Notes: generated by a model not told the origin, from the letters alone. A stretch of DNA of 64,000 nt from Desulfobacteraceae bacterium (GCA_003599865.1 QZKS01000088.1:6682-70681), one strand, 5' to 3'. Positions 9,589 to 54,717 are shown, counted from the stretch's first letter. Made by a program: numbers and translations.

Positions 9589-12075
9589 ATGAATATGCAA
9601 GACATACAAGTGGTGGATGCGGGACCGAAGATCAGTATTGAGACCGAGATGAAGAAGTCTTATCTCGAATATGCGATGAGTGTCATTATCGGCCGGGCGC
9701 TGCCGGATGTGCGTGATGGATTGAAACCGGTACACCGCAGGGTTCTGTTTGCCATGCGGGAACTCAAAAATGATTGGAACAAACCCTATAAAAAATCTGC
9801 CCGTATTGTCGGAGATGTCATTGGTAAATATCATCCGCATGGAGATACGGCGGTCTATGACACCATTGTTCGAATGGCGCAGGATTTTTCCCTGCGATAT
9901 CCGTTTGTAGATGGTCAAGGTAACTTTGGTTCTGTAGACGGGGATTCAGCGGCTGCGATGAGATATACGGAAATCCGCATGATGCGGCTCGCGCATGAAA
10001 TGCTGGATGATCTGGATAAGGAAACCGTAACATTTATCCCCAATTATGATGAATCCCTTACCGAACCATCGGTGCTTCCGGCCAAGATTCCAGCCCTCTT
10101 GATAAACGGCTCCTCCGGAATTGCCGTCGGCATGGCAACCAATATTCCGCCCCATAATCTGACGGAAGTCATCAATGCCATCACCGCTCTAATTGATAAC
10201 CCGGATATTACCTGGCAGGAGCTGCTGGAGCACATTCCGGGACCGGATTTCCCGACCGCAGGGATCATTTATGGTACCAGCGGTATCCATGAAGCATACA
10301 AAACCGGAAGAGGTATTATTCGTGTTCGTGCCAGAGTGGAGGTTGAGAAAGATCGGACAACGGACATGGAGACAATCGTCATTTCAGAGCTTCCGTATCA
10401 GGTCAACAAGGCCCGGCTTATTGAAACCATCGCGCAATTGGTTCGGAACAAGCAGATTGAGGGAGTGCGATATGTACGGGATGAGTCGGACCGGCATGGA
10501 ATGCGGATTGCAATCGGATTAAAAAAAGATCAATTTTCCGAAATCATCATTAACAAACTGTTTAAACATACCCGGTTGGAAAATAGTTTTGGGATTATTT
10601 TTCTTGCCGTAGTCAACAATCGGCCTGAGATTCTTTCCCTAAAAGAGATTCTGGAACACTTTGTCCTTCATCGCAGGGAAATTATTGTAAAGCGGACCCG
10701 GTTCGAGCTTGCGAAAGCAGAAGCAAGAGCACATGTATTGGAAGGCCTGAAGATTGCCCTGGATAATCTGGATGAAGTGGTTGCATTGATCCGGGCATCA
10801 AAATCACCTCAGGAAGCGAAATCCGGATTGATGGAGCGGTTTGCCCTTTCTGAAATTCAGGCCCAGGCAATCCTGGAAATGCGCCTACAGCGGTTAACCG
10901 GTCTTGAGCAGGAGAAAATTTTAGAAGAATACCAGGCGGTGCTTAAGGATATTGAGCGTTATAAGGCCATTCTTGGCAGTGCTCGGCTGGTGCTTGATAT
11001 TATCAAAGACGAACTTTCTCAGATTAAAAGTGAATTTGGAGATGCGAGAAGGACGCAAATTGTCCAGGCGACAAAAGAGATCACCATGGCCGATATGATC
11101 GCTGAAGAAGATATGGTCGTGACCATTACCCAAAGCGGCTATATCAAACGAAATCCCATCACTCTGTATCAGCAGCAAAACCGGGGGGGTAAGGGAAAAA
11201 CAGCGATGGGCACCAAGGATGAGGATTTTGTTGAGCATTTATTTGTCGCATCCACACATCACAACTTTTTGTTTTTCACAAATAATGGAAAGGTTTACTG
11301 GTGCAAGGTATATGACATCCCGCAAGCAGGCCGTGCCAGCAGGGGTAAGGCGATTGTGAATCTGCTTGATTTCGATCAGGATGAAAAATTGACAACGGTC
11401 CTGGCCGTACCGGAATTTGAGCCGGGATATCATATCATGATGGCAACCAGAAAGGGTACGGTGAAAAAGACGGATTTGATGGCATACAGCAGACCGAGAA
11501 CCGGCGGTATCATTGCGCTGAATCTGGCAGAAGGAGATGAATTGATTTCGGCCAGAATAACCGACGGAACCATGAATGTTTTCCTCTGCACGGCAAATGG
11601 AAAATCAATTCGATTTCTGGAATCGGATATCCGGCCTTCCGGCAGAATTGCACGGGGGGTAAGAGGAATCCGGTTGGTAAAGGATGACCGGCTCATCGGC
11701 ATGGAAGTTTTGAGTCATGGCCAGACCCTTTTTACGGTGACGGAAAACGGGTTTGGGAAACGCACATCCATTGATGAGTATCCTGTTCAGAAAAGAGGCG
11801 GGCAGGGTGTCATAACAATTAAAACCAATGTTCGTAACGGCAATGTTGTTGCCATTCTTCTGGTCGATGAAGATGATGATATTATGCTGATGGCAGACAG
11901 CGGCAAGTTGATCCGGATGGCGGTAAAGGGAATTTCCGTGATCAGCCGCAACACCCAGGGCGTTAAGCTGATTGAAATGGAAGCCCATGAGAAGGTGGCC
12001 GGTGCGGCAAGGCTGGCAGAGAAAGAAGAAGAAAATGATGATGAAAATATAGAAAACATAGAAAATGAAGAATAA
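9589..12075 (+). CDS. gyrA: DNA gyrase subunit A
   Basis: Contains DGLKPVHRR, the active-site context AAMRYTE, C-terminal beta-pinwheel repeats and an acidic tail. Confidence 0.97.
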
Positions 12076-37527: not shown

Positions 37528-39111
37528 GTGAAATATTTAATTTTAAAAAGTGTAATCGTTTTTTTCTTGTTTCTTTTCATCCCGATGCAGGCAATGACAA
37601 ATTCTCCTACACAAATTGCCGTCATCCCCTTCACAGTCAATGCGGAAAAGAATTATGCATATTTGCAGAATGGGATAACGGAGACGCTTATCTTTCATTT
37701 GTCAAAAGAAGGAGAATCAAAAATAATTGATTCGGAAGCTGTTAATGAAGTAATGAAAGATATGAAAGGTCCTTTGACTGATACAAAAGCAGCACAGATT
37801 GGTCAGGAATTGAAGGCAGATTATATTGTTTACGGTAGTGTTACGGTTTTTGGCGACCAGGTCAATGTTCATGGAAAAGCGTTTGATGTAAAAAAGTTAC
37901 ACCCTCCTGTACGTTTGTCCAGGGAAATGTCTTCTATTGATGGAATCATTCCGGAGATCAAGGTGTTTGCAGGTGAAATTGAAAAAGCTATTGTATCAGC
38001 CACTTCTCACACCAATCAACCACAAGATGAGCTGGAAATCCAGGCGGAAAAAAAATCCGACTCCTCATCAGAGATTATTGTTCATCGTGAATCTCAGGTT
38101 CAGGGCATGACCGGTTTTTGGAGAAGCGAGCCTGTTGAAACACTGATTCACAGCCTGGGGGTTGGTGATATAGACAACGATGGTAAAAAAGAAATCCTTA
38201 TCCTTTCACCGCATACAATTGATCTCTATCGCATTCAACAGTCAAAGCTTGTAAAAGAAGAAAAAATTTATTCAGATGATGGCCATTATTTCATCAGTAT
38301 CGATATTGCGGATATCAATGGGAACGGTTTTCCGGAAATTTTTGTGACCAGCCTGAATGCACTTCAAAATACGGTCTCTTCTTTTGTGCTGGAATACAAA
38401 CAGGGAGTTTATATCCGAACTATGAAAGACCTTTCCTGGTATTTTAAAGTGATTGAGGGAAAACAGCTGATGGGTCAAAATCAGAGAACCGGTGGTTCGG
38501 ATATTTTCAGCGGTGCAATTGTGCGGATGGCTTGGAAGAACAACCGATATGAGCCGGCTGAACCGATTATGCCTGAACATTCAGCGAATCTCTTGGGTTT
38601 TGCGTACGGAAGATTCCTGAATACTAGTGAAAGTGTGGCAGTTGTTACGACCAAGGGCGGCTCATTGCAGATCATTGATTCTTCGGGAAATCGGTTTTGG
38701 TCAGGAAGTGAGTCTTATGCAACCCTCCCATTTTATTTCATACTTCCCAGGGAGGAACCGAGTGTTGAAAATCGGCAGTATTATCCGGCGCGGATCAAGA
38801 TCAACCCTACGGATGGAAGCAAAGAGATTATTGTTGCAAGGAATCCAAAATCCATCGGAGGAGCCTTGTTGAATTTCTTCAGTTCAAATGATCAATCTCA
38901 AATCGAGGCTCTTTACTGGGATGGAATCGGTTTTACGTCTAAATGGGAAACCAGGAAGATATCAGGAACCATAACTGATTTTATTATCGATGATGTTGAT
39001 CAGGATGGAAAAAACGAACTGGTTGTCAGCCTGATTTTGGAAACAGGCAACATTTTACGTCAACCCAAAAGTGTTCTATTTCTATATAATCTCGATGGGA
39101 TAAAAGAATAG
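37528..39111 (+). CDS. Secreted FG-GAP/VCBS-repeat protein with a TolB-N-like (IAVLPF-type) N-terminal domain, copy 1
   Basis: Signal peptide (MKYLILKSVIVFFLFLFIPMQA) followed by IAVIPFTVN...YIVYGSVTVFG. Three Ca-binding-like FG-GAP motifs are present: VGDIDNDGKKEILI, DIADINGNGFPEIFV and IDDVDQDGKNELVV. The GTG start lies 3 nt after the gatB stop, with GGGGGA upstream. Confidence 0.7.
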   Translation: MKYLILKSVIVFFLFLFIPMQAMTNSPTQIAVIPFTVNAEKNYAYLQNGITETLIFHLSKEGESKIIDSEAVNEVMKDMKGPLTDTKAAQIGQELKADYIVYGSVTVFGDQVNVHGKAFDVKKLHPPVRLSREMSSIDGIIPEIKVFAGEIEKAIVSATSHTNQPQDELEIQAEKKSDSSSEIIVHRESQVQGMTGFWRSEPVETLIHSLGVGDIDNDGKKEILILSPHTIDLYRIQQSKLVKEEKIYSDDGHYFISIDIADINGNGFPEIFVTSLNALQNTVSSFVLEYKQGVYIRTMKDLSWYFKVIEGKQLMGQNQRTGGSDIFSGAIVRMAWKNNRYEPAEPIMPEHSANLLGFAYGRFLNTSESVAVVTTKGGSLQIIDSSGNRFWSGSESYATLPFYFILPREEPSVENRQYYPARIKINPTDGSKEIIVARNPKSIGGALLNFFSSNDQSQIEALYWDGIGFTSKWETRKISGTITDFIIDDVDQDGKNELVVSLILETGNILRQPKSVLFLYNLDGIKE

Positions 39112-40788: not shown

Positions 40789-42363
40789 ATGAAAAAAATA
40801 GATCTGTCTCATATTTTGATAGCTATAGCAGTTTTATTAATTTATTTATGGATGTCGGATTTTCATGTGATTGCCGCGAACAGAAATAGAATCAAGGTTC
40901 TGCTGTTTCAAGTCAACTCGGAAAAGGACATGAAATATTTGCAGAAGGGACTTTCCGACATTTTGGAATCCAGACTGGCCGGTATCGAAAACGTGGAGAT
41001 CGTGGGGCCGGAAGCACAAACGGTTGTTCATATCCCTGGAGAACACGGTTATCATCCGGAGGAGATTCGCAAGGTCTATAAGGACGGGAATGTAGATTAT
41101 ATTGTTTGCGGGAGTCTTACCATCGTAGGAAACCATACGAGCCTGGATGCAAAGGTGATCGAGCTGTCGGGAACGAAAGGATTCTGGTCATTTTATCGAA
41201 ATGTGGATCATCTGGACGAAGTCATCCCGGCTGCTGAACAGATTGCAAAGGAAATTGAAGATACCGTATTTAAGGGGCTATCTCGGAATATAAAGACTTT
41301 TATTTCAACACAAAAAGATGATCTGAAGAGCCGGAAAGAAAAGAGAAATGATTATCATCTTCAAAGCCTTGAATTGCCGATTCAGGTCATCGGTCTTGGT
41401 GCCGGAGATGTTGATGGAGATGGAAGCATTGAAATTGTCGCGGCCTCCAATCATGATATTCATACATTCCGTTTCAAGGAAAACAGCCTTGTCGGCAGTG
41501 GAGACGTCAAGGGAGAAAAATATCACTCCTACCTGTCAATAGATGTTGCCGATATCAACAAAAATGGAAAGGCGGAGATTTATATTTCCGGTGAACATAC
41601 CGGATCAGGTTCTTTGACATCATTTGTCATGGAATGGAATGGAAAGCAGTTTTCTCCGATTATCCAGGATCAAAATTGGTATTTTCGTGTGATTCGTACG
41701 GAAAAAGGAAATCAGCTTCTCGGGCAGAAAAAGGGGATTTCCATGGCTTATATGTCTGGAATTTATAGACTTTTATGGGATGGCGAGGTATTGATACCGG
41801 CCAAACAGCAAGAAGCTTTTCCGGATGATACAATGGTTTTTGGGGTTTCAAAAGGATTTGCCGGGCAGAATGCAGATCTGACCGCAGCGTTTGATTCAAG
41901 TGACCGGCTTTCGATCATCCATGAAAATGGCAGCATTGCCTGGAAAAGTGATACTCCTTATGGCGGCAGCGAGCGTTTTATAAAGACGGTTGAAGATTAC
42001 CGTGACAGCGAAGGTGATCGGTTTTATCTGCCGCAACGAATCGTTGCTTTGGATTTTGAGAAAAAGCCGATGGTGATCATGCCGTCAAATGATTCCTCTT
42101 CCGGTCGGTTTTTTCAAAAATTCAGAAATTATACCAATGCACGGTTTTTGTTTTTCACCTGGGATGGTATGGGGCTTCTGTTAAGCCGAAAATCGCCGGA
42201 CCTGTCCGGTTATGTGAGTGATTTCTGTATCGCAGACGTAAATAACGATGGGTGGGAAGAATTGATTTATGCGCTTGTTACAGACAGAGAAACGGCTTTT
42301 CGCAGTGCGAAAAGTTATCTTGCGAGTGAGGCTTTATCCGGGTTGATCATACCACGTCCATAG
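40789..42363 (+). CDS. Secreted FG-GAP/VCBS-repeat protein with a TolB-N-like N-terminal domain, copy 2 (paralog of 37528-39111)
   Basis: Same architecture as copy 1: RIKVLLFQVN...DYIVCGSLTIVG, then AGDVDGDGSIEIVA, DVADINKNGKAEIYI and IADVNNDGWEELIYA. It also shares the NWYFRVI...QLLGQ block (SWYFKVI...QLMGQ in copy 1). Confidence 0.7.
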   Translation: MKKIDLSHILIAIAVLLIYLWMSDFHVIAANRNRIKVLLFQVNSEKDMKYLQKGLSDILESRLAGIENVEIVGPEAQTVVHIPGEHGYHPEEIRKVYKDGNVDYIVCGSLTIVGNHTSLDAKVIELSGTKGFWSFYRNVDHLDEVIPAAEQIAKEIEDTVFKGLSRNIKTFISTQKDDLKSRKEKRNDYHLQSLELPIQVIGLGAGDVDGDGSIEIVAASNHDIHTFRFKENSLVGSGDVKGEKYHSYLSIDVADINKNGKAEIYISGEHTGSGSLTSFVMEWNGKQFSPIIQDQNWYFRVIRTEKGNQLLGQKKGISMAYMSGIYRLLWDGEVLIPAKQQEAFPDDTMVFGVSKGFAGQNADLTAAFDSSDRLSIIHENGSIAWKSDTPYGGSERFIKTVEDYRDSEGDRFYLPQRIVALDFEKKPMVIMPSNDSSSGRFFQKFRNYTNARFLFFTWDGMGLLLSRKSPDLSGYVSDFCIADVNNDGWEELIYALVTDRETAFRSAKSYLASEALSGLIIPRP

Positions 42364-42407: not shown

Positions 42408-42699
42408 GCCGTCTATGATTATTTTGGATTTGCTGAAAATCATAACATGCCTGTCCCAAACATCAATAACGAAAAGTCATTATACAAATCATTAACATTT
42501 TGAGCCTGCAACAGCTTTCATAAAAACACGACTATGACATACTTTTTGATACATGATGTCTTATGAAATTTCAGCTATTATTACAATCGATGAATTTTAT
42601 GATGAAAGGAGGGATGCCGGGAACGTTTCAGTCTGATGATATTCACTGAATGGTTTAAGATTTATTATTAGTAATAACAGATATTTAAGGAGATGATTG

Positions 42700-44250
42700 A
42701 TGAAAAAAACAACCATATTACTGCTTACAATCTGTGTTTTGGTGATGACTGCCGGCACAGGTATGGCTGCGGAAGTTGATTTCAGCGGCGAGTACTATAT
42801 TGAAGGGATCTACAACTCCAATCCAAACCTGGCCAAAACAGATCTGGCAACCTATTACCGCCAGATGAGGCTCCGGGTTCAGACTGATTTTAAAGTGACC
42901 GAAGATTTAAAACTCACGACCCGGTTTGATGCGCTTGAAAAAGTATGGAATACGGATGACTCGGCCTTTACAAATAGTGAAGATGCGGAAAATATCGATT
43001 TTGACCGGGCATACATGACCATCATCAGCAAGGTCGGTATGTTTATGCTGGGGCGCCAGGAAGGGGTTACCTGGGGTACGACCTGGGCGGATGATGAGGA
43101 TGACACGGATCGCTTCAAGTGGGTGCTGCCTCTGGACGCTGCCGGCGGTAAATTGATTTTTGCATTGATTGCGGAAAAAACCACGGAGAATGATAAAACC
43201 AGGCAGGATGATAATCTTACTAATGATATAACCAGCGGAAAAGATAATGACAAGTATTACTTTGGAACGATTTATAAACGGGAAAGATATGATACCGGTC
43301 TGTTGCTGGGGCTCTATGATTTTAACCGGGTTCCGGACCCTGGTCAACGCAATGCAATCAATCAGTTTAGCGATGCCGGATATACTGCGAATGTGGCCGG
43401 ACTCACTGCTTATGGGGCGGTACTTCAGGGTTATGTAGCCGCTGTCATAGCAGATGGCGGAACACCAGGCGCAAATACACTTGCATACCTTGCGGCAAAC
43501 CCGGAAATAGCTACACTGGGTACTCCGACTACAGCGGGCAGCCCGATGAATACGCTGATCACCAGAGGAGGCGTTGGCGAGGCGCATGTTTATCTCTTAT
43601 CTCCCTATTTCCGCGGGAAATTCGATAAACTTGGTGTCCAGGCCGAACTTGATTATGTATTTGGAAAAGTGGAATATTCAGATGATGGATATGCCGTGCC
43701 AGACCATGATGTCAAGGCGTTTTCTTATTTTATGGAAGGCACCTATGATGTGGGTCCGTTGGTTTTCCAGGCAGGATGGGCACACCGTTCCGGTGATGGC
43801 AATGAAGCCGATACGGATGAAAAAGGCATGGGATATTTTTCACCGGGTCTGGATTGGGAAAAAATGCTTATCCTGTCTTCCGATTACCACGGCTTGAATA
43901 CCACTATGGCCGGGATTGGAAACCATGTGGGCGATGGATTTATAACTTTTTCAAGACCGCTTCTGGATGGTTTCCGGATGCCTTACATCGGAGCTGATTA
44001 TTCCGTAAGAGATGACATCACTATCGGCCTTCTGGCAGCCATGTCTACAGCAGACGATACGGTTACCGGCTGGGATGATGACCAGGGCGTTGAAGTGGAT
44101 CTTAAGTTTACCTGGCAACTCATGGATAACCTGGAATACCAGGCAACCTTTGCCTATCTGTCTGCAGGAGATTACTGGAAACAGGGTAATGCGGCTGCGG
44201 ATTTAGATGATCTTTATTGTGTTTTCAGCCGGCTGACCATGACATTCTAA
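42700..44250 (+). CDS. Outer-membrane beta-barrel protein (porin-like, large)
   Basis: Signal peptide (MKKTTILLLTICVLVMTAGTGMA-AE), Asp/Gly/Tyr-rich alternating strands, and a C-terminal ...SRLTMTF ending in Phe. The ATG at 42700 follows AAGGAGA plus 6 nt. Confidence 0.65.
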   Translation: MKKTTILLLTICVLVMTAGTGMAAEVDFSGEYYIEGIYNSNPNLAKTDLATYYRQMRLRVQTDFKVTEDLKLTTRFDALEKVWNTDDSAFTNSEDAENIDFDRAYMTIISKVGMFMLGRQEGVTWGTTWADDEDDTDRFKWVLPLDAAGGKLIFALIAEKTTENDKTRQDDNLTNDITSGKDNDKYYFGTIYKRERYDTGLLLGLYDFNRVPDPGQRNAINQFSDAGYTANVAGLTAYGAVLQGYVAAVIADGGTPGANTLAYLAANPEIATLGTPTTAGSPMNTLITRGGVGEAHVYLLSPYFRGKFDKLGVQAELDYVFGKVEYSDDGYAVPDHDVKAFSYFMEGTYDVGPLVFQAGWAHRSGDGNEADTDEKGMGYFSPGLDWEKMLILSSDYHGLNTTMAGIGNHVGDGFITFSRPLLDGFRMPYIGADYSVRDDITIGLLAAMSTADDTVTGWDDDQGVEVDLKFTWQLMDNLEYQATFAYLSAGDYWKQGNAAADLDDLYCVFSRLTMTF

Positions 44251-44340: not shown

Positions 44341-45117
44341 TCAGGTAATCATATTCTGAATCCGCATCATGAAATCCCCGACATCGCGACCATATTCGGG
44401 TGATCCTTCTACCCGGAGATATTCATTTTTCACGGCCGTCACCATATCCACCTCATTCAGGATTACCGGGAGTGCACCGTCAATGCCATTGAACCGCATA
44501 TGAACAAAGGGGCGCCTCTTTTTGTAAAAACCTCTTCCCGCTTTTGTTTTTCCGGCTTTGACCCTTAGGTATGCGGCGATGTCCTCGTTGTCCACGGACA
44601 TCTGATAAATCCGTTCCGGCTGTTTGGATGTCCAGCGGACCATTTCCGGATCGCCGCCCTTGTTGTACTGGCTGAGGGCAGTGGTAATCATATAAATTGT
44701 CATTTTAATTTTCAGTCTTTTTTTATCCTCTGCGGTTGGTTTTGCATTGGGCATGAGAATTTTTAAGCTCAGGAGCAGGCTGAACATTTTGATCAGCAAT
44801 CTGATTTTCAGAAACCCTTTTATACGCGGAATCACCGGTTTGCCGGCCAGCATGTCATTCATTTTCTTGACACTTCCAAATCCAAAACGAATATCCGGAC
44901 TGGGGCAGATACCCTGGATGATTTCCAGATTTCCTTTCTGAAAGTCCAGATATGCTCCCACTTCTCCGGAACCGTTTTGAGCGGCAAACTGGATTTTTGC
45001 GGTAACATCCTGGAAGCGGTTTTTCATTTTTTGAACATCAGAAAGAACAACCTTCATTACCGGAAACAAAGCCTGCAAGAATAATCGTGCTGCGAGCAAA
45101 TCTCTTTCAGTTGTCAT
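44341..45117 (-). CDS. SCP2-like hypothetical protein, copy B (last gene of the operon)
   Basis: Paralog of 48367-49128, sharing IQF..., P.P.I.F.F.S and IP.IKGF.KI blocks. The C-terminal ...LRVEGSPEYGRDVGDFMMRI resembles an SCP2 sterol-binding tail. The ATG at 45117 lies 1 nt after the transketolase-C stop. Confidence 0.5.
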   Translation of the reverse strand: MTTERDLLAARLFLQALFPVMKVVLSDVQKMKNRFQDVTAKIQFAAQNGSGEVGAYLDFQKGNLEIIQGICPSPDIRFGFGSVKKMNDMLAGKPVIPRIKGFLKIRLLIKMFSLLLSLKILMPNAKPTAEDKKRLKIKMTIYMITTALSQYNKGGDPEMVRWTSKQPERIYQMSVDNEDIAAYLRVKAGKTKAGRGFYKKRRPFVHMRFNGIDGALPVILNEVDMVTAVKNEYLRVEGSPEYGRDVGDFMMRIQNMIT

Positions 45118-45118
45118 G

Positions 45119-46129
45119 TTATACCTCATCTTCCCAGTCGTCATCCTCTTCAAAATCCATGTTCATGACTTCCCGGACCTTGTCAATAATTCCATCCGTA
45201 TCCAGCTTATAGTGGCTGCAAAGATCTTCCGGATACCCGACGATGCAGTAGCAGTCGGGAATGCCGACCTTGACAAAGGCACAACCTTTTCCACTTGCAG
45301 CAATAACATCGGCAACAGCGCTTCCAAGCCCTCCCAGCACCGTATGATCTTCAAAGGTGATGATCCTTCTCGTGTCCGTTACGGCCGCCAGAACGGCTTC
45401 TTCATCCAGCGGTTTGATGGTATGCATGTTCAGTACCCGCACGCTCAGACCATCATTTTCCTTGAGAAATTTTGCTGCCTCGGCAGCCTGCAAAACGGTA
45501 ACACCGCAGCAGATCAGGGTGATATCGGTTCCTTCATTTACCTCAATGGCTTTTCCAATCTGGAAATCATAGTCTTCGTTTTCATAAAATTTGGGTTCAA
45601 ATCCCCTTCCGATGCGGATATACACCGGCCCGGGGTAGTCGACGCAGGCTTTTACAGCCTTTGCAGTCTCAATTCCATCAGCCGGAGCGATCACGGTCAT
45701 GTTGGCGAAAGATCGCATGATCGCAAGATCTTCCGTACAATGGTGGGTGGTGCCGGCCGAACCAAATGAGGTGCCGGCGTGGGTGGCGATAATCTTGCAG
45801 TTCAGATTCTGATAGCAGATATCCGTGCGAACCTGCTCCACTCCTCGCATGGCAGTGAAGGCTGCCATTGTTGAGACAAAGGGGATCAGACCGGTTTTGG
45901 CAAGGCCGGCGGAAACACCAAAAAGATTTTGTTCGGCAATCCCGACATTGAAAAAACGATCCGGAAATTTTTTGCCGAATTTTCCGATTTTAGTGGAGTT
46001 GGCCAGATCCGCCGACAGGCCGACTATTTTTGGATTTTCTTCTCCTAACCGGCAAAGAACTTCTCCATAGATTTCCGCCTGGGTCATTGTATCGGCATCA
46101 TAGACCGTCCATGTTAAGCCTTCCGTCAT
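45119..46129 (-). CDS. Transketolase family protein, C-terminal (pyrimidine-binding) subunit
   Basis: 336 aa containing FFNVGIAEQN, GTSFGSAGTTHH and the C-terminal regulatory domain. It is a split-transketolase type. Confidence 0.85.
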   Translation of the reverse strand: MTEGLTWTVYDADTMTQAEIYGEVLCRLGEENPKIVGLSADLANSTKIGKFGKKFPDRFFNVGIAEQNLFGVSAGLAKTGLIPFVSTMAAFTAMRGVEQVRTDICYQNLNCKIIATHAGTSFGSAGTTHHCTEDLAIMRSFANMTVIAPADGIETAKAVKACVDYPGPVYIRIGRGFEPKFYENEDYDFQIGKAIEVNEGTDITLICCGVTVLQAAEAAKFLKENDGLSVRVLNMHTIKPLDEEAVLAAVTDTRRIITFEDHTVLGGLGSAVADVIAASGKGCAFVKVGIPDCYCIVGYPEDLCSHYKLDTDGIIDKVREVMNMDFEEDDDWEDEV

Positions 46130-46162
46130 TGTGCCCTCCTCTTTTTATTTTTGAGCGTGCCG

Positions 46163-47020
46163 CTAATTTTTGAGGTTCATTGCCTGTTCAGCCATCCGGT
46201 CTACAGATGCTTTTGCTTTTTCAACCAGCTCCGTATCCAGACCTCCGTAATGCCATTTTACTTGGTTTTCCATGAAATCGATCCCCTTGCCTTTAACCGT
46301 ATTGGCGATTATGACAACCGGGCCTTTTTTTTCGCTTTGGGCGTATTCGATAGCAGCAGACAACTCGGAAAAGCTATGTCCATCAACTTCTTTCACAATA
46401 AAACCAAAAGCTTTCCATTTGTCCGCAAAAGGCTCAAGACCCATGACCTCCTCTGTCGGTCCGTCAATCATCAGTTTATTCCGGTCCACAAAAGTGATGA
46501 GGTTGGTCAGTTTAAACTGGGAGGCAGCCATGGCCGCTTCCCAGATGGAACCTTCATTGCATTCGCCATCCCCTAAAATACAGTAGGTGAGCCAGGATTG
46601 TTTTTGTACCCTGGCGCCTAACGCCATCCCGACAGCCATGGGAAGACCATGACCCAGGGAGCCGGTGGAAGCATCCACGCCTTTTACCTTCAGGCTGTCC
46701 AGATGCATTCCAAAAGGAGATTTGAATTTGTTGAATTCTTTCAGGTCCTGAAAGTCAAAATAGCCTTTGCGGGCCAGCAGCGGAGCGTATCCCACACCAC
46801 CATGGCCTTTACTGAGAACCATCCGGTCTCTGTCTTTCCAGGTCGGATTTTTCGGATCAATATTCATATACTTGTAATAAAGGAGGATCAACATTTCGAC
46901 CATACTCAACGCACCACCAATATGTGCCCCCCCTGCCCAATATGTGATATCGATAATATCCTTCCGCAGCTGGCATGCCTTTTCATGTAATAATCGGATT
47001 TCCTGATCTGTAACCGGCAT
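46163..47020 (-). CDS. Transketolase family protein, N-terminal (ThDP-binding) subunit
   Basis: 285 aa containing GGHIGGALS, SKGHG and the ThDP motif GDGECNEGSIWEA...N. Confidence 0.85.
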   Translation of the reverse strand: MPVTDQEIRLLHEKACQLRKDIIDITYWAGGAHIGGALSMVEMLILLYYKYMNIDPKNPTWKDRDRMVLSKGHGGVGYAPLLARKGYFDFQDLKEFNKFKSPFGMHLDSLKVKGVDASTGSLGHGLPMAVGMALGARVQKQSWLTYCILGDGECNEGSIWEAAMAASQFKLTNLITFVDRNKLMIDGPTEEVMGLEPFADKWKAFGFIVKEVDGHSFSELSAAIEYAQSEKKGPVVIIANTVKGKGIDFMENQVKWHYGGLDTELVEKAKASVDRMAEQAMNLKN

Positions 47021-47061
47021 TTTTTCCTCCTGTTGTGACGGGATTGTTCACCATTATCTTC

Positions 47062-48312
47062 CTAAAAGCGATCACCATATTGCTGTTTGATGATTTGAAA
47101 TGCATCATCCGCAATTTCGAGCGTTTGTTGGATATCTTCATCGGTATGGGCTGTTGAAACAAACCAGTTATGATGGGATGTAAAATAGGCCCCTCTTCCG
47201 GTACACTCCGCACACCAGTCCTGATGCAGCATGAGGCTTTCATCATTGGTAATGCGAAGATAGGGCATGGAAGGGGCGCCGGTAACCTTCAAATCATATC
47301 CATAGGTTTTGGCAACCTTAACCAGCCCATCCAGAAGCTTTTTCCCTGTTGCCAGAATTTTTTTTGGTCCATCGATTCTTTTGAGCTCTTTCAGGGTCTC
47401 AAGGGCGGCTGCCATGGGTTCTGCCTGGAACCAGTAGCTTCCCGTGTAAAAAACACGCGCCGTAACATCCTTGAGCGCCTGGCTGCCCATCAGAGCGGAA
47501 ATCGGATATCCGTTTGCAAGCGCCTTGCAGAAGCAGATCAGATCCGGTGTGAAGCCGAAATATTCGCAGGATCCTCCGATATCCATCCGAAAACCGTGGC
47601 GGATGTCATCGACAATAAGAACGATTCCATGTTTTCGGCAAAGAGCCTCGATTTTTTTCCAATATCCCTCATCCGGCATTTCATTGTCCGCAAAGACAGG
47701 AACATGATAAGGGGTTGCAATAAAACCAGCGATATCATTTGGATTGTTCTCTATGGCTTTTTCAAATGCAGGAACATCATTCCAGGGTATCCGGATGATG
47801 TTTTCCGCATCCTCCTCAATGGTTCCATGGTGTCCCGGCGCCTGCATCCAGGAAGACGCGCCGTGGTAGCCGCCTTTGATCATGACAATTTTTTTTCTTC
47901 CGGTGGCATCCCTGGCAATCATGGTTGAATAATTGGTCACATCCGCGCCGTTTTTGGCAAAAAACACCCAATCTGCTGCCGGAATTAAATCCACCATAAA
48001 CTCTGCCAGCTCAACCATGACGCTTGGCGCTCCAGTGGTGCAATTGGATGATTGAATCTGCTTTGCCGCAGCCTGATCGACAAGCGGATGATTATATCCT
48101 AAAATCATGGGGCCGTAGGCACACATATAATCAATGAACTCATTTCCATCCACATCCCAGAACCTGGCACCGGCAGATCTTGCCGTATAAAATGGATAGG
48201 ATGTTGCCGGAACAAGAGGGGCGGGGCTGAAATGCCCATAGATACCGCATGGAATGACCTTTGCTGCCCGTTTAAACAATTCCTGTGATTTTGTAAATTG
48301 GTATGTTTTCAT
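47062..48312 (-). CDS. Class-III (omega-type) aminotransferase, glutamate-1-semialdehyde aminomutase-like
   Basis: Fold-type I class III pattern with GGYHG, VDDIRHGFR and the PLP-Lys context FCKALANGYP. The ATG at 48312 follows GAGGGA plus 8 nt; the ORF opens at 48363. Confidence 0.8.
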   Translation of the reverse strand: MKTYQFTKSQELFKRAAKVIPCGIYGHFSPAPLVPATSYPFYTARSAGARFWDVDGNEFIDYMCAYGPMILGYNHPLVDQAAAKQIQSSNCTTGAPSVMVELAEFMVDLIPAADWVFFAKNGADVTNYSTMIARDATGRKKIVMIKGGYHGASSWMQAPGHHGTIEEDAENIIRIPWNDVPAFEKAIENNPNDIAGFIATPYHVPVFADNEMPDEGYWKKIEALCRKHGIVLIVDDIRHGFRMDIGGSCEYFGFTPDLICFCKALANGYPISALMGSQALKDVTARVFYTGSYWFQAEPMAAALETLKELKRIDGPKKILATGKKLLDGLVKVAKTYGYDLKVTGAPSMPYLRITNDESLMLHQDWCAECTGRGAYFTSHHNWFVSTAHTDEDIQQTLEIADDAFQIIKQQYGDRF

Positions 48313-48366
48313 AAACAGTTCCCTCACATGTTTTCCGATAGGAATTCCCGCCATCGGTCCCATGTT

Positions 48367-49128
48367 CTATCCCAGATAAAGCGGTATTCTGTCCAGTACC
48401 AGACCCATGGAATCCAGCATGGGGGTTTGTCCTTTAATCATCACATCTCCGGAAGCAATCGCAGTGAATGCATCCAGTTTGGCATTCAGAAAAGCATTTG
48501 CGACTTGCATATTTTTCATATAGAGGCAGGCCATCGGCCTTTCCGTCTCGCCGGAAACCGGTGTGATATTGCCGTTCCGGACCCGGAGGGTTACTGCCGG
48601 CCCGTCCGGCAGAATCTTCATGAGAATATCACCGTTTTGAATATGGGAGACAGCATGTATTCCAACCCGGTCCAGGCTTCCGATTTCCGGTATGGCATGA
48701 GCTGCCGTGTTCAGTGTAAATCGGGTATTGAGTTCGCAGTAGGTTGTATCCTTCAAGAGTTCATCGGTCGGCTTGAGATAATATTCCAGCTTTTTGGTCA
48801 GTTTTTGAAAGTCGCCGTTCAGGAAAGGTATTTTGGTAAACCCTTTTAATGGAATCGGAAATCCCCGGCCGTCCATCATCCGGTTTAAATGGGCTGGAGA
48901 GAAAAAAAACAGAATGATTGTCGGTTTGGGAAGTTTGCCCTGTCCTACCCGGCATTTTCCGTTTTGAAATTCGATAAATGCCTTGGGTCCGAGCAGTATG
49001 GAAAACTGGATGGATATATTCCACTGTTTTGACAGGGCGGCCATTTCCGGATCATATTGAACAAGATCTTCGAGGTTTTTCAGCACAGCACAGAGGTTGA
49101 GTCGGGCTTTAATCAGTTCATGACCCAT
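48367..49128 (-). CDS. SCP2-like hypothetical protein, copy A (first gene of the operon)
   Basis: 253 aa. The C-terminal FLNAKLDAFTAIASGDVMIKGQTPMLDSMGLVLDRI resembles the SCP2 sterol-carrier tail. It is a paralog of 44341-45117. Confidence 0.5.
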   Translation of the reverse strand: MGHELIKARLNLCAVLKNLEDLVQYDPEMAALSKQWNISIQFSILLGPKAFIEFQNGKCRVGQGKLPKPTIILFFFSPAHLNRMMDGRGFPIPLKGFTKIPFLNGDFQKLTKKLEYYLKPTDELLKDTTYCELNTRFTLNTAAHAIPEIGSLDRVGIHAVSHIQNGDILMKILPDGPAVTLRVRNGNITPVSGETERPMACLYMKNMQVANAFLNAKLDAFTAIASGDVMIKGQTPMLDSMGLVLDRIPLYLG

Positions 49129-49180
49129 GAAAAATCCTCCTATTGTCTGGGGGGAAAAAATATGTTATCTTCACGATAAT

Positions 49181-49196
49181 GAGTGATCGCTCACTC
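49181..49196. promoter_or_regulatory. Candidate TetR operator (inverted repeat) in the divergent intergenic region
   Basis: GAGTGA-TCGC-TCACTC is a perfect 6-bp-arm palindrome. It lies 53 bp upstream of the operon's first gene, and a minus-strand TTGACA (49209-49204) sits 7 bp away. Confidence 0.35.
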
Positions 49197-49410
49197 TATT
49201 GGGTGTCAATAAATCAAAACAGCCTTTAAAAGTCAAGTGGAATTTGTCCGACGAGAAGCACAGGACTTAACCATCGACACCCCTGATGTTTGTAAACAAA
49301 TGGGTTGTTTTTTACGATAGTTGACAGAAAACCAGGATGAAACGTCATTTCAATCCATCTGGAAAAAAATAAGCAACGTGTCTTCAGATGAATACGTGCC
49401 AAGGAGCAAG

Positions 49411-50118
49411 ATGAAAAAACAGTTCGAACTGAATTCAAACCAAGGAATTACAAAGCAGAAACATTATAAAGAGGCGTTTCAAAAAATTTCTCCGGAAAAA
49501 CGGGAAAAAATTCATACTGTGGCGGCTGGAGAATTTGCAAAGCACGGACTAAAGGCTGCGAATATTAATATCATCGCCAAAAAGGCCGGGGTCAGTATCG
49601 GGTCCATGTATAATTATTTTAATTCCAAGGAAGATCTGTTTTTAACGGTTATGGATTACGGCTATCAGGTGCTGGAACAGGTGATTTCGGAAATCGATCT
49701 TGAAAAAGGTGATATTTTTGATAAAATTGAGAGACTCTTACGGGCGGCCCAGAAGTATACAAAGGAATATCCGGAGCTGAATCAGATCTATCTGGATATT
49801 ACCTCCCAGGGGCTTTCCCATCTTTCGACATTGCTTTCCCGCAAGATGGAGACGATCTCGGCACAATTTTATCGCTCCATGCTTACAGAGTCCAAAAAAT
49901 CGGGAACCATTGATCCGGATATCGACGAACATATAGCCTCTTTTTGTTTGGATAATTTGATCCTTTTATTGCAATATTCTTATACAACCGATTATTTCCG
50001 GGAACGCATGAAGATATTTGCCGGCGAAAATACGGCGGATAATGATGAAAAAATAATTCAGGGCATGATGCACTTTATACGGAACGCACTTTCTTCTCAT
50101 CCCAAGATAATAAAATAA
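49411..50118 (+). CDS. TetR/AcrR family transcriptional regulator
   Basis: The HTH region is GLKAANINIIAKKAGVSIGSMYNYFNSKEDLF. The ATG at 49411 follows AAGGAG plus 4 nt; the ORF track opens with TTG at 49321. Confidence 0.85.
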   Translation: MKKQFELNSNQGITKQKHYKEAFQKISPEKREKIHTVAAGEFAKHGLKAANINIIAKKAGVSIGSMYNYFNSKEDLFLTVMDYGYQVLEQVISEIDLEKGDIFDKIERLLRAAQKYTKEYPELNQIYLDITSQGLSHLSTLLSRKMETISAQFYRSMLTESKKSGTIDPDIDEHIASFCLDNLILLLQYSYTTDYFRERMKIFAGENTADNDEKIIQGMMHFIRNALSSHPKIIK

Positions 50119-50158
50119 AAAAGCCGTCACTCAACTTTGATTTAGGAGGGGATTTGCC

Positions 50159-51265
50159 ATGAAAATCGGGGTGCCAAAAGAGATAAAAATCAAGGAAAAC
50201 AGGGTTTCATTAACACCAGCCGGGGTCGCGGCGCTTGTGGATGGCGGGCATACGGTTTATGTGGAAAAAGGAGCCGGACAGGGTTCCGGGATCATGGATG
50301 AAACGTATGTCAAGACCGGTGCTGTTATGCTGAATACACCGGAAGCGGTTTGGGCGGAAGCGGATATGATCATTAAGGTGAAAGAACCCATAGAACCGGA
50401 ATTGGGTTTAATGAAGGAAGGTCAGATTCTGTTTACCTATTTGCATCTGGCCGCTGATCAGAAACTAACCCAGTGGCTGCTGGGTAAAAAAGTGATCGGG
50501 ATTGCCTATGAAACCATTCAGCTGGAAAATGGATCTCTTCCCCTGCTCGCTCCCATGAGTGCCGTTGCCGGAAGGCTTTCCGTACAAATGGGCTGTGCCT
50601 GCCTGGAAGTTAAAAACGGCGGAAAGGGACTTCTGGTATCCGGGGTCCCGGGTGTTGCACCTGCCCGTGTAACCATTGTCGGCGGAGGCATATCCGGGAT
50701 TAATGCAGCTCAAGTTGCCATTGGCATGGGTGCCCGGGTGACCATTCTCGATATCAATCAGGAGAGACTCCGTTATCTGGACCATCTCTTTTATTCACAA
50801 GCTGTGACCTTGATGTCCAATCCCGTGAATCTGGAACAAAGTATTCTCAGTGCGGATCTGGTGATCGGCGCGGTGCTGATACCGGGAGCCAAAGCACCCA
50901 AACTGATCAAGAAAGAGTATCTGAAAAAAATGGAGCCGGGTTCTGCGCTGGTGGATATTGCCATCGATCAGGGTGGATGTGCGGAGACAAGCAGGCCCAC
51001 AACCCATGATGATCCAATATATATTATTGATAATATTGTACACTATTGTGTTGCCAATATGCCCGGGGCTGTTCCGCGTACATCAACCTATGCCTTGACC
51101 AATGCAACTTTTCCTTATGTCCTTGCGCTGGCAAACAAGGGATTGAAGAAAGCCCTTACGGAAAATACCGCATTGAAAAGGGGCCTGAACGTTTACAAAG
51201 GTCAATTAACCTGTGAAGAAGTCGCGAATGCCTTTGGGATGAAGTCCGCAGCAATCAGTTTATAA
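50159..51265 (+). CDS. ald: Alanine dehydrogenase
   Basis: Starts [20 protein letters not shown] and has the NAD motif [12 protein letters not shown]. It is Ald-like throughout and begins 40 nt after the TetR gene. Confidence 0.92.
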
Positions 51266-53654
51266 TGCTGCTTCTCCGGATGATTTCATCTTTCATTTTG
51301 GGAGACAGATCGTTGAAATAAGCGGAATAACCGGAAACCCGGACAAGAAGATGGGGATACAGATCCGGATTGTTCTTGGCGGCCAGTAACATGGAAGGGT
51401 CAAGGACATTCACCTGAACCTGCATGCCGCCTTTTCGGAAATAGGTTGACAGCACACTTTTCAAGGCAAGTTTTCCGGTTGGTCCACGGAGCGTATGGCT
51501 GTCAAACTTCAGGTTAAAATTGACACCGTTGGCGATTTTGGAAAAATCAATTCGATTCACCGAATTGATGAGAGCCGTTGGCCCAAGCCTGTCCATTCCA
51601 TTGGATGGAGAAATCCCGGAGGAAAAGCTTTCTCCTTTTTTTCTGCCGTTGGGAAGAGCACCGGTAACTCTTCCATAATATTCATGGATGGTAACCGAGT
51701 AAAGACCCGGAACATAACGGCCGCCTCGGGTATTCCGGTATTGGTTCAATTGCCGTGTAAATTGCTCCACCACATAAACCGTCCATTTGTCTGCATCCGG
51801 TTGGTCATTACCGAATTTTTCAATGGCTTTTAAATAATTCCGGAGGGAATTGTCCGGCAGGTTGAGGCTGAGTTGTTTCACCAGCGCGGGGAGGGTGATT
51901 TTTTGATCGGTAAATACCGCTTTTTCAATGGCAAAAAGGGAGTCGCCGGTATCTGCCGGAGCCACACATTGAATACCGGAAAAGTTGTAACGGGCTCCTC
52001 CTGCCGTAGAGCAAATCCCGTTTTCCAGACACCCCTCCAGAAGAGAGCTGGTAAGGGGGGTTGGATGATATTTTCGATTGGCCGTTTCAATGGCCTGAAG
52101 ATCTTTGATCAGCCGGGATACCTGATCGGCAAGCTGGATTTCAAAAGCGGTTTTTACATCCTCCATGGACCGCATGTTTTTGACGGGCATGCTTTTGGCT
52201 CCGGACCGGAACCGGGAACCGAACCGTCTGCCCTGGTTGAGCGCCAGCTCCAGAATCAGCGGTACATTCAACAGCGCGGCATCGGTTGATGAAAAGCTTT
52301 TTCCCTGTGCCACGGGTTCAACACACCCCACGCCGGTATAATCCCTTGCATCTTCGATGGAATATCCGTGATGAACCATGGTATCCACAATAACCGTATC
52401 ATTATACAAGGCCGGGGAATTGCTGCCGTTGGCCAGCATGGTATGGATTTTTTCCAGATATTGTTCAGGGGATTTGTCTGAAATCCGCGCATGATAATTG
52501 GGTTGCCGCATTCGCAGTTCATCCATGATTTCCAGAAAAACATAGGTCAGTTCATTGGTTCCGTCTGTTCCATCCGGTCGCAATCCCCCTACCGTAACCA
52601 CCTGACCGTTGAACATGCCCCCATGAATATTGGTGAGGTATTCTGAAAAAACAGGTATGATTTCAGACATTTTAATGGAAAATGCCGAGAGGAGTTCCTT
52701 GGCTTTATCCCGAGTGATTTGCTTGCGCTGCAAATCGGCTTCATAAAAAGGATACAGATACTGGTCCATCCTTCCCGGGCACACCGAGTTATCCAGACTT
52801 TCCAGGTTAATGGCAATCTGGGCAAAAAAGAGGGACTGGACAGCTTCCTGAAAGGATGAGGCGCCTTTTTGGGGCACATTTCTACAGGTTTGGGCTATCG
52901 TGAATAATTCCTGTTTTCGACCGGCATCGGATTCAGCACTTGCCATTTTTTCAGCAAGATGCGCATAGCGTTGTCCGAACTTTGCAAGTGCATCTGCAAT
53001 GATTTTCACCGCCTCATAAAAACACCATTTTTCCGTTCCCTGGATTGAATTTTTCTGAAATCCGGAGGCCTCGGCAAGGATTCCATCCGTGCCGATGGAG
53101 ATCAGTTTTTCATAATCCGGAGCAATGTGGGAGATTCCGCCTGACTCGTTAATGATATAGAAATGGCCTTTCAGCTGATGAATCAGCAGCCGGATGAGTT
53201 GATAGGGGGAGCGGTAAGCCTTGAGAGCCATAAATCGGAACATCCAGAATGGAATGATTTTCAACAGATTCCAGATTTCAATGCCGGAAATCCGGAGCGG
53301 ATTGGTTTTTCGTTTGGAGAATTTGAAAATATCCAGCAATACGGGAACGCCATGAAGCTCAGGAAAAATGGACCCGCCGACTCTTTTGGAGGAATAATTG
53401 CCGACAATCAGTTCGTCAGGGTAGATGCGGATTTTTTTGTTCAGCAATACCTCACGCAAGGATTCCGCCATCTGAATATGGGCGGACTTTTTGCGGTTAT
53501 CCGATTGTTTGTGGTAGGCTGTCCAGATGCAGGCCCGATCCGTACAGATCCCGGGAGAGGCTGTCTGTACGGAATTTTTCAAGCGCATCACCCGCGATGG
53601 TTTTTTTTCTTCGGTTACCGGTCTTCCCAGGTGATCAGTCGTAAAGAACAGCAT
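51255..53654 (-). CDS. Glycyl radical enzyme (PFL2/eliminase-type, specificity unassigned)
   Basis: The C-terminal glycyl-radical motif is LLVRVSGYSAYFNDL and the thiyl loop is GVGCVEP (Cys-x-Glu). The ATG at 53654 follows AAGGAGGA plus 5 nt; the ORF opens at 53672. Confidence 0.9.
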   Translation of the reverse strand: MLFFTTDHLGRPVTEEKKPSRVMRLKNSVQTASPGICTDRACIWTAYHKQSDNRKKSAHIQMAESLREVLLNKKIRIYPDELIVGNYSSKRVGGSIFPELHGVPVLLDIFKFSKRKTNPLRISGIEIWNLLKIIPFWMFRFMALKAYRSPYQLIRLLIHQLKGHFYIINESGGISHIAPDYEKLISIGTDGILAEASGFQKNSIQGTEKWCFYEAVKIIADALAKFGQRYAHLAEKMASAESDAGRKQELFTIAQTCRNVPQKGASSFQEAVQSLFFAQIAINLESLDNSVCPGRMDQYLYPFYEADLQRKQITRDKAKELLSAFSIKMSEIIPVFSEYLTNIHGGMFNGQVVTVGGLRPDGTDGTNELTYVFLEIMDELRMRQPNYHARISDKSPEQYLEKIHTMLANGSNSPALYNDTVIVDTMVHHGYSIEDARDYTGVGCVEPVAQGKSFSSTDAALLNVPLILELALNQGRRFGSRFRSGAKSMPVKNMRSMEDVKTAFEIQLADQVSRLIKDLQAIETANRKYHPTPLTSSLLEGCLENGICSTAGGARYNFSGIQCVAPADTGDSLFAIEKAVFTDQKITLPALVKQLSLNLPDNSLRNYLKAIEKFGNDQPDADKWTVYVVEQFTRQLNQYRNTRGGRYVPGLYSVTIHEYYGRVTGALPNGRKKGESFSSGISPSNGMDRLGPTALINSVNRIDFSKIANGVNFNLKFDSHTLRGPTGKLALKSVLSTYFRKGGMQVQVNVLDPSMLLAAKNNPDLYPHLLVRVSGYSAYFNDLSPKMKDEIIRRSSIIN

Positions 53655-54582
53655 GGATTTCCTCCTTTTCAAACAATTCTTGGATTTCTTGAAGATTTTT
53701 CAGATCCAGAGGCGTGATATTCATGGGGCGTAAGGATGTATCGATTCGGTTCAGCTTGGCCTCGCCCAGCGGATGATACGGAAGCAAATGGATGCTTTCC
53801 TGCTGATTCTTCTTCAGGAAGCGGGCTGTTTCCCGGATATTATCGGGCGCGGTATTGACACCCGGGATAACCGGCATTCTCGCCTGAACAGCCATTCCGC
53901 TTTTCGATAACCAGATGAAATTATCCAGTATGTTGGCATTCCCTTTTCCGGTAAACTGTTTGTGGATGGAATCATTCATATGTTTGAGGTCATAGAACAC
54001 AAGATCAAGCAAGGGAAGCAGTTTTTCGATATTGGTCCAGGACATCATACCACAGGTCTGGATGGTCGTATGAATATGTTTCTCCCGTATCATGGGAAGC
54101 CAGGCCAGCAGAAAATCCGTTTGAAGAAGCGGTTCTCCGCCGGAAAGGGTAATGCCTCCATTGGAGTCCTGAAAAAAGGCGATGTCCTTTACGACTTCAT
54201 TCGTAAGATCCGTTAGGCCCCATTCCTTTCCCACCAGTCGGAGACTGTTTGTAGGACATTTGGAAACGCAAAGGCCGCATGCCGTGCATCTTTCAGGATC
54301 AAATCGAAGGGCCAGAGTTTCAGAGATGGCATTTTCCGGACAGATTTGTTTACAGGTGAAGCAATGGATACAGCTTTCTGCATAGAAAATCAGTTCCGGT
54401 TGCGCGCGATGGGATTCCGGGTTTTGACACCATACACAGGATAACGGGCAGCCCTTGAAAAAACAGGTTGTGCGAATTCCCGGTCCATCATGAAGGCAAA
54501 ACCGCTGAATATCAAAAATGACGGCCTTTTCTCCGGGATAATGCAAGTTACCATCCTTTTCCATCATGGGAATGTTATGCAT
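53635..54582 (-). CDS. Glycyl-radical enzyme activating protein (radical SAM with two auxiliary ferredoxin-like clusters)
   Basis: Contains CPLSCVWCQN (CxxxCxxC), CIHCFTCKQICP and CTACGLCVSKCP. Its stop overlaps the start of the glycyl radical enzyme gene. Confidence 0.9.
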   Translation of the reverse strand: MHNIPMMEKDGNLHYPGEKAVIFDIQRFCLHDGPGIRTTCFFKGCPLSCVWCQNPESHRAQPELIFYAESCIHCFTCKQICPENAISETLALRFDPERCTACGLCVSKCPTNSLRLVGKEWGLTDLTNEVVKDIAFFQDSNGGITLSGGEPLLQTDFLLAWLPMIREKHIHTTIQTCGMMSWTNIEKLLPLLDLVFYDLKHMNDSIHKQFTGKGNANILDNFIWLSKSGMAVQARMPVIPGVNTAPDNIRETARFLKKNQQESIHLLPYHPLGEAKLNRIDTSLRPMNITPLDLKNLQEIQELFEKEEIHAVLYD

Positions 54583-54717
54583 TTTTATGGCTGAATACTA
54601 ACAAACAGACCATACGGTCTTTAAGTTGAAAACTAACACACCCCTTTCCTTTTTGTCAAATGATTTGCTCTGTATTTAATAATAGAAAAAAACCCGATAC
54701 AGGGATAAGCATTTGGA

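Follow-up and report, generated by a model that had tools for sequence, protein, structure and literature searches.

We analyzed a 64,000-nt stretch of DNA from a Desulfobacteraceae bacterium (GCA_003599865.1, QZKS01000088.1:6682-70681), referred to here as the window, which encodes a glycyl radical enzyme (GRE) and its radical-SAM activating enzyme (activase) in adjacent genes. The intact pair is an ordinary member of a large, well-conserved and uncharacterized bacterial family present in at least 80 species, which sequence comparison places as the nearest large bacterial relative of Archaeoglobus fulgidus PFL2. Our favored reading, held with moderate confidence, is that the enzyme acts as a CXE-type eliminase or isomerase that would cleave a C-O bond in a hydroxylated substrate other than those of the characterized GREs. 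Both genes lie on the minus strand within 51255-54582, and their features, in window coordinates, are as follows.

51255..53654, minus strand: GRE coding sequence, 799 aa plus stop, identified by translation, an exact match to the database protein P0001, Pfam PF02901 and PF01228, and an AlphaFold2 (AF2) model.
53635..54582, minus strand: coding sequence of the radical-SAM GRE-activating enzyme, 315 aa, identified by motifs, TIGR02494 and Pfam.
53661..53667, minus strand: putative Shine-Dalgarno sequence AAGGAGG, read from the sequence, located within the 3' end of the activase gene and separated from the GRE ATG by 6 nt.
51315..51341, minus strand: glycyl radical motif RVSGYSAYF (aa 772-780, with Gly775), aligned to Gly763 of glycerol dehydratase (GDH).
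52314..52328, minus strand: Cys loop GCVEP (aa 443-447, with Cys444 and Glu446 of the CXE motif), aligned to GDH C433/E435 and invariant in the family.
53112..53141, minus strand: beta-1 motif GGISHIAPDY with His176, the equivalent of the GDH general-acid His164.
53145..53321, minus strand: N-terminal helical stretch aa 112-170, called atypical before, defined by a MAFFT alignment and AF2 helices.
53232-53249, minus strand: FWMFRF within that stretch, at the position of W-x-G-[KR]-[ST] in other GRE eliminases.
54427..54450, minus strand: activase CxxxCxxC radical-SAM cluster motif CPLSCVWC (aa 45-52), from the sequence.
54256..54372, minus strand: activase residues 71-81 and 99-109, each forming a ferredoxin-like CxxCxxCxxxC motif, from the sequence and Pfam Fer4.

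A preliminary description of this DNA had listed the hallmark motifs as intact, namely RVSGYSAYF and GCVEP in the GRE and CxxxCxxC plus two ferredoxin-like clusters in the activase. All of them were located and, with both reading frames and the catalytic motifs intact, the two enzymes look functional. The GRE assignment does not reflect chance, since the Pfam scores lie far over their thresholds (PFL-like PF02901, 554 bits; Gly_radical PF01228, 101.7 bits versus a cut-off of 22.2); the activase scores 329 bits with TIGR02494 (cut-off 174). One detail had to be revised. The GRE had been described as starting at TTG 53672, which begins the maximal open reading frame (ORF; 51255-53672, minus strand). 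The true start is likely ATG 53654, because AAGGAGG lies 6 nt upstream and the resulting 799-aa product is identical to P0001, a protein from a Desulfobacteraceae metagenome-assembled genome (MAG) that is named "formate acetyltransferase" in the database. The activase 3' end overlaps the GRE start by 20 nt, and the identical overlap is found in loci L001, L002 and L005-L007 from Desulfobacterales, Spirochaetota and Smithella. The gene layout suggests that the activase and the GRE form one co-transcribed, translationally coupled operon.

The AF2 model of the GRE (pTM 0.85) is predicted to have the superfamily fold, a PFL-like 10-stranded barrel, with TM scores of 0.89-0.92 on GDH, propanediol dehydratase (PD), HypD and CutC (0.91-0.92 for GDH and PD) and 0.91-0.95 on PFL2. 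The sequence carries the other features of the superfamily as well: the C-terminal radical motif, the putative thiyl residue Cys444 on the Cys loop and a dedicated, adjoining radical-SAM activase. Among proteins in the PDB, the best sequence match is A. fulgidus PFL2 (2F3O; E 1.8e-152, 37% identity), followed by Clostridium butyricum GDH (36%) and the GRM3 propanediol dehydratase 9RCO (35%; PMC12756279), while Roseburia propanediol dehydratase and CutC rank below these three. Identity is 31% to HypD and PflD and 30% to CutC and YbiW. Foldseek gives 26-29% to the C-S lyases, HplG, HpyG and HpzG (27-29% for 7KQ3, 5YMR and 6LON), and 23-24%, with weaker fold scores, to MASS and BSS. The characterized GRE types are themselves 31-42% identical to each other, and the window GRE stands at matching distances from them.

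Scored against curated cut-offs, the GRE reached no NCBIfam equivalog model. The bit scores were 463.7 versus 1100 for the trans-4-hydroxy-L-proline dehydratase HypD (NF043068), 461 and 443 versus 1000 each for the DHPS dehydratase HpfG and the C-S lyase HpsG (NF048009 and NF048011), 449 versus 1109 for PflD (NF007437), 404 versus 1050 for the choline trimethylamine-lyase CutC (TIGR04394) and 138 versus 994 for PFL (TIGR01255), all less than half of the cut-offs; the broad PFL2/glycerol dehydratase subfamily model TIGR01774 fell just short (646 versus 678.2). The view in the preliminary description that the specificity is unassigned is thus borne out, and the high identity to a characterized GRE that it had named as the finding that would make this an ordinary ortholog was not seen, the maximum being the 37% to PFL2. 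A superfamily review of June 2026 lists all characterized GREs (PMC13450708), and our scan of the 2025-2026 GRE literature found no characterization of this family.

To describe the family we collected more than 120 clusters (at 90% identity) that match the window GRE over its full length at 62-82% identity, coming from Desulfobacterales, Smithella and other Syntrophales, Spirochaetota, Chloroflexota and others. A locus scan with one genome per species gave 80 loci. Among their sources are the cultured strain Desulfatibacillum alkenivorans DSM 16219 (60% identity), MAGs labelled Desulfosudis oleivorans and Desulfocicer vacuolatum (DSM 3385) at 82-83%, and Leptospirales, Thermoanaerobaculia and Myxococcales, with Chitinophagales and Flavobacteriales at about 50%. 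In a library clustered at 50% identity the family is represented by two full-length sequences at 50%, followed by others at 47%, 44% and 41% and a continuum below 40%; the library holds about 2,100 GRE-like cluster representatives (E ≤1e-30). A neighbor-joining tree recovers the family with a bootstrap of 100, joins it to a GRE from Acinetobacter and Moraxella plasmids (100) and then to A. fulgidus PFL2 (98), and sets this group apart from GDH/PD, PflD, YbiW, HypD and CutC.

Two groups of relatives are unusual in other respects. The library representatives P0123 (50% identity) and P0128 (41%) are 1,095 and 1,136 aa long and each have some 300-350 additional N-terminal residues ahead of the GRE body, which recalls the long form of CutC; the Cys loop of P0128 aligns as S-C-E, not C-V-E. 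The plasmid GRE (801 aa, 48% identical to the window GRE) lies in a common Tn3-flanked cassette on Acinetobacter towneri p4SAAt401 (L088, 11300-17322) and Moraxella osloensis pYHS2 (L089, 11179-17322), which encodes a helix-turn-helix regulator, the GRE, an activase, a 6-bladed beta-propeller protein and a carboxymuconolactone-decarboxylase-family protein, the last three having the same accession numbers in both plasmids. Its pocket signature is HETLWDYN. An oxygen-sensitive GRE on a transposon in strictly aerobic Moraxellaceae is odd.

The preliminary description had singled out the N-terminal stretch of the GRE as atypical. Aligned by MAFFT to nine reference GREs, the 59 residues of aa 112-170 are indeed only 11-21% identical to the characterized GREs, versus 30-37% for the whole protein, a region that is also more variable among the characterized GREs themselves (27% versus 36%). 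The most visible change is FWMFRF in place of W-x-G-[KR]-[ST] (YWNGKT, YWPGKT, YWKGRT, FWEGRS, YWQRKT and similar). By alignment and model the stretch is not an inserted domain, nor is it disordered, because it is collinear with other GREs, with 3-4 gap columns, and is predicted to form ordinary helices (124-138, 142-145 and 150-162) and a strand (166-168) with pLDDT of about 76-88. Within the family it is 62% identical on average to the window protein, versus 66% overall, and FKFSxRKTNPL, IIPFWxFRF and INESGGISH are near-invariant. The difference itself therefore stands, but not as an oddity of this gene; judged by these alignments, it is a hallmark of the whole family.

We then compared the active site with those of characterized GREs. 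The GDH, PFL2 and PDH sequences were rebuilt from HMMER alignments, in which the numbering of C433, E435, H164 and G763 checks out, and those of HypD, CutC, PflD, YbiW and GrpM were taken from annotated plasmid records. For the GDH active-site residues beyond H164, C433 and E435 we used a list that we take to be correct and that is consistent with the alignment; part of the HypD list is likewise our assumption. The window GRE keeps C444/E446, H176 (GDH H164), S290 (S282), D458 (D447) and Y652 (Y640), all of them invariant or almost invariant among 30 family members, and C444-V-E446, which places the enzyme in the CXE class, is found in all 30. The roles assigned to the CXE motif and to His164, the proposed general acid of GDH, follow PMC13450708.

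Three positions that determine specificity in other GREs are different. N289 is invariant in the family and replaces H281 of GDH, an Asp of HypD and a Thr of CutC. H344, also invariant, is Phe in GDH, PD, CutC and PflD, and the invariant G350 is Tyr or Phe in GDH, PD, CutC and HypD, with Gly found elsewhere only in PflD. The residues after the Cys loop change from EGWH in GDH to FSST. Eight positions make up the core pocket, H176-N289-[SAG]290-H344-G350-D458-Y652-V654, which reads HNSHGDYV in the window protein. Six of the eight are common with Escherichia coli PflD, five with the propanediol dehydratases, four with GDH, three with either PFL2 or the Acinetobacter plasmid homologue, two with YbiW, one with HypD and none with CutC.

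The signature H-N-[SAG]-H-G-D-Y-V occurs in 117 of 255 aligned full-length relatives, all of them at least 46% identical to the window protein, and splits into many others below about 45% identity. This break-up indicates that the family bearing the signature is probably isofunctional, and it argues that PFL2 and the plasmid homologue need not have the same substrate. None of the 31 pocket and second-shell columns examined holds a family-specific Arg or Lys. Because of this, the pocket leans against a sulfonate or carboxylate substrate, whereas a phosphate bound elsewhere may still be accommodated.

E. coli PflD is a 1,5-anhydromannitol-6-phosphate C-O lyase, a GRE isomerase, and has the core pocket closest to that of the window GRE (H, S, G, D, Y and V, including the Gly at 350), with H657 and N169 of the second shell also in common. 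However, it is only 31% identical overall and has Ser and Phe where the window GRE has N289 and H344, and the pathway context of PflD and YbiW (PTS, aldolase) was not found in the window. PFL2 resembles the window GRE in the CXE motif, the beta-1 His, the Asp at Cys+14, the equivalent of Tyr652, the RxRQPNxHxR strand and, following the Cys loop, the segment SF(S/T)S(T/S)D, and it aligns through the aa 112-170 stretch with only 4 gap columns. It differs in its core (HQAFNDYM versus HNSHGDYV) and in having YWQRKT where the family has FWMFRF, and it is an archaeal, hyperthermophilic protein. The match transfers no function, because the function of PFL2 is itself debated, glycerol dehydratase versus alkylsuccinate synthase, and has been for nearly two decades (PMC13450708).

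What we observe are the genes and their motifs, the class of fold, the membership of the family and the residues of the pocket; from these we infer a scheme for the chemistry, the cleaved bond and the nature of the substrate. The radical-SAM activase would install a radical on Gly775, which would pass to Cys444 in turnover. The Cys444 thiyl would abstract a hydrogen from the carbinol carbon of a small hydroxylated substrate, Glu446 would take the proton of the substrate hydroxyl, and the neighboring C-O bond would break with the assistance of His176. Cys444 would then return the hydrogen to give a carbonyl product. The C-O cleavage may be the loss of a hydroxyl, as in the diol dehydratases, or the opening of a ring ether, as in PflD and YbiW. 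The pocket looks roomier than that of GDH because of Gly350 and the small Ser/Thr residues after the Cys loop, and these features, together with the PflD-like core, suggest that the substrate is probably bulkier than glycerol.

To survey the genomic neighborhood in the 80 loci, about 1,050 flanking ORFs were clustered de novo, and the first and second neighbors were scanned with Pfam; the clustering took ORFs of at least 90 aa only, so that very small genes may escape it. Only the activase is conserved as a neighbor: of the 70 loci with 1 kb or more of sequence upstream, 59 have it directly upstream of the GRE. The next commonest neighbor is a divergently transcribed GntR/FadR(FCD)-type regulator, which makes up 10 of 64 upstream neighbors, is spread over Desulfobacterota and Spirochaetota and scores below the cut-offs of the FadR, NanR, PdhR and LldR NCBIfam models. 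All other neighbor families, including acyl-CoA dehydrogenase, ThiF-like, SpoIIE, TetR and MFS families, occur in at most five loci per scan (≤5/64, 4/71 and 5/124 neighbors). The activase and GRE pair thus behaves as a free-standing module, which is used by sulfate reducers, syntrophs, spirochaetes and others.

Two loci have gene arrangements of their own. In L010 (3364-6813), a gene resembling the D-component of 2-hydroxyacyl-CoA dehydratase follows the GRE, in the activase's stead. In D. alkenivorans DSM 16219 (L063, 12384-18311), the genes directly 3' of the GRE encode a GntR regulator, a Zn-dependent polyol-type dehydrogenase, an APH-family kinase, two class-II aldolases (one of the FBP type, one of the fuculose-phosphate type) and a GlpD-like dehydrogenase. 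This cluster resembles a sugar or polyol phosphate set and would suit a PflD-like reaction; we rejected it as the pathway of the GRE, as it is absent from all other loci, including that of a sister Desulfatibacillum MAG.

Several observations weigh against a C-O-cleaving enzyme with a new substrate. The inspection of substrate positions that the preliminary description had proposed found N289, H344 and G350 together in no characterized GRE, so that analogy is weak at the very positions that determine specificity. Confidence in the AF2 model is lowest at aa 331-350 (pLDDT 55-61), which hold H344 and G350. Since C-N and C-S lyases and decarboxylases are found among CXE enzymes too, C-O cleavage is only the most likely option. 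No activase lies within 10 kb of the GRE in 11 of the 70 loci (L010, L018, L033, L036, L044, L054, L055, L058, L074, L080 and L082). Finally, the 80 loci show no recurrent dehydrogenase for alcohols or aldehydes, aldolase, microcompartment gene or dedicated transporter, so there is no pathway to anchor the chemistry of the GRE. For the window, the preliminary description had correctly reported that no alcohol dehydrogenase, microcompartment shell gene or transporter adjoins the pair; the absence of a substrate-telling neighbor extends to the 80 loci, but the description had overlooked the following block of genes beside the GRE.

50159-51265, plus strand: alanine dehydrogenase, whose 3' end meets the GRE.
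49321-50118, plus strand: TetR regulator, beside the alanine dehydrogenase.
48367-49128, minus strand: SCP2-like protein, in a divergent operon beyond TetR.
47062-48363, minus strand: class-III aminotransferase, GntE/GSA-like, below all NCBIfam cut-offs.
46163-47020 and 45119-46129, minus strand: split transketolase of the divergent operon.
44341-45153, minus strand: second SCP2-like paralogue, 24% identical to the first SCP2-like protein.

This block raises the alternative that the GRE is a C-N or C-S lyase whose substrate would be an amino- or sulfo-compound, with the adjoining alanine dehydrogenase, the aminotransferase and the split transketolase as its partners in a scheme resembling the taurine/isethionate or sulfo-transketolase ones. 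An aminotransferase and an alanine dehydrogenase are classic partners in isethionate sulfite-lyase pathways. The alanine dehydrogenase abuts the GRE, with TetR and the SCP2-like/aminotransferase/split-transketolase operon alongside, and the block is kept in L008, L009 and L069 even though the L069 GRE is only 74% identical. However, these three closest genomes are the only ones of the 80 loci in which it stands next to the GRE, and its genes lie on other strands and in other operons. We therefore read the pairing as inherited synteny and rejected a functional link. The pocket also speaks against such a lyase: where CutC has a beta-1 Asp (Asp216) and a Phe/Phe box, the window GRE has His176, His344 and Gly350, with no core match, and C-S lyases bind the sulfonate with two Arg and a Gln (PMC13450708), whereas the 31 columns hold no family-specific Arg or Lys. 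The HpsG/HpfG and CutC models lie far below their cut-offs (443-461 versus 1000 and 404 versus 1050). Overall, we consider a C-N or C-S lyase unlikely. As an observation in its own right, the 44341-51265 block may constitute a pathway for an amine on a hydrophobic moiety.

A divergent glycerol, 1,2-propanediol or ethylene glycol dehydratase would use the same eliminase chemistry on a known substrate. GDH and the propanediol dehydratases (1R8W; 5I2A and 9RCO) are the best structural matches (TM 0.91) and rank just after PFL2 in sequence; they share the fold, the CXE motif, the general-acid His and the equivalents of Asp447, Tyr640 and Ser282, so that the GDH His/Asp/Tyr/Ser/Cys/Glu set is retained, and PFL2 was first proposed to be a glycerol dehydratase (PMC13450708). 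The substrate pocket of these enzymes (H164, H281, S282, Y339/F, D447 and Y640) is nevertheless not reproduced: H281 becomes N289, F333 becomes His and Y339/F becomes G350, only 4-5 of the 8 core positions match, and EGWH gives way to FSST. Identity is only 35-36%, the score is below even that of the broad TIGR01774 model (646 versus 678 bits), and a diol-pathway context of microcompartment, 1,3-propanediol dehydrogenase and aldehyde dehydrogenase genes was found neither in the window nor in the 80 loci. We judge a dehydratase of one of these known diols or of glycerol to be improbable.

Much less probable still is an X-succinate (alkylsuccinate) synthase that adds alkanes to fumarate, an activity put forward for A. 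fulgidus PflD/PFL2. In its favor, PFL2 gives the top sequence match, forms the sister lineage and has been suggested to act as a MASS; members of the family are found in degraders of alkanes and alkenes (D. alkenivorans, Desulfosudis oleivorans MAGs and Smithella), and in some loci the neighbors are beta-oxidation genes or a FadR-like regulator. BSS and MASS also share with the window GRE the GRE fold, a single catalytic Cys and an occurrence in hydrocarbon-degrading Desulfobacterota. Unlike them, the family has the eliminase Glu of the CXE motif, which is invariant. The fumarate-binding Arg of BSS and MASS lies 15 residues after the catalytic Cys (PMC12358834), whereas Cys+15, mapped by offset and not by direct alignment, is Ala459 in the window GRE and Ala in all 30 family members. 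There is neither a trace of beta, gamma or delta subunit genes nor room for them, given a gap of only 135 nt upstream of the activase and the 3' overlap with the alanine dehydrogenase gene, and no small neighbor (ORFs of at least 90 aa) recurs in the 80 loci. MASS and BSS are only 23-24% identical to the window GRE and give weaker fold scores, and family members also occur in organisms that are not known for hydrocarbon use, such as Desulfocicer vacuolatum, Leptospirales and Chitinophagales. A pyruvate formate-lyase, for which only database names speak, can be dismissed: the name "formate acetyltransferase" is wrong because the loop (G443-C444 in G-C-V-E-P) has no Cys-Cys pair, and E. coli PFL matches well only over the C-terminal radical domain (TIGR01255, 138 versus 994 bits).

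In the remainder of the window, a GT2 glycosyltransferase gene lies upstream of the operon, and the convergent alanine dehydrogenase gene downstream overlaps the GRE 3' end by 11 nt (51255-51265), with no space for a terminator between them. No match to Rfam elements (riboswitches or RNA leaders) was found in the window or in six diverse loci, and a promoter and terminator scan gave counts no higher than in shuffled sequence. The gap upstream of the activase contains a perfect 14-nt palindrome, AGACCGTATGGTCT, at 54607-54620, which we rejected as an operator: it is unconserved in the closest loci, similar palindromes are as frequent in shuffled sequence, and it is probably due to chance. No second GRE was found in the window; an 828-aa ORF at 9589-12075 shows no similarity to GRE and is presumably DNA gyrase subunit A, which its N-terminal sequence resembles by eye. 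Two paralogous FG-GAP-repeat proteins, 27% identical to each other, are encoded at 37528-39111 and 40789-42363, near a porin-like protein at 42697-44250.

GREs perform chemically difficult anaerobic reactions, and the GRE specificities found so far have each exposed a new pathway, for choline, hydroxyproline, isethionate or anhydro-sugars. With about 2,100 GRE-like clusters at 50% identity, one more unassigned family is to be expected and is not surprising, but this one is a fair target for enzyme discovery. It is conserved at 62-82% identity across phyla and routinely mislabelled "formate acetyltransferase". Its particular worth lies in its place as the closest large bacterial family to the debated PFL2 and in having at least one cultured carrier, D. 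alkenivorans DSM 16219, which makes it experimentally approachable. We see it as an evenly balanced question whether the family catalyzes a GRE reaction on a substrate new to GREs, for instance an abundant environmental polyol or cyclic ether that it would dehydrate or ring-open. If it does, solving the family would give a foothold on the argument over PFL2 as a dehydratase or an alkylsuccinate synthase.

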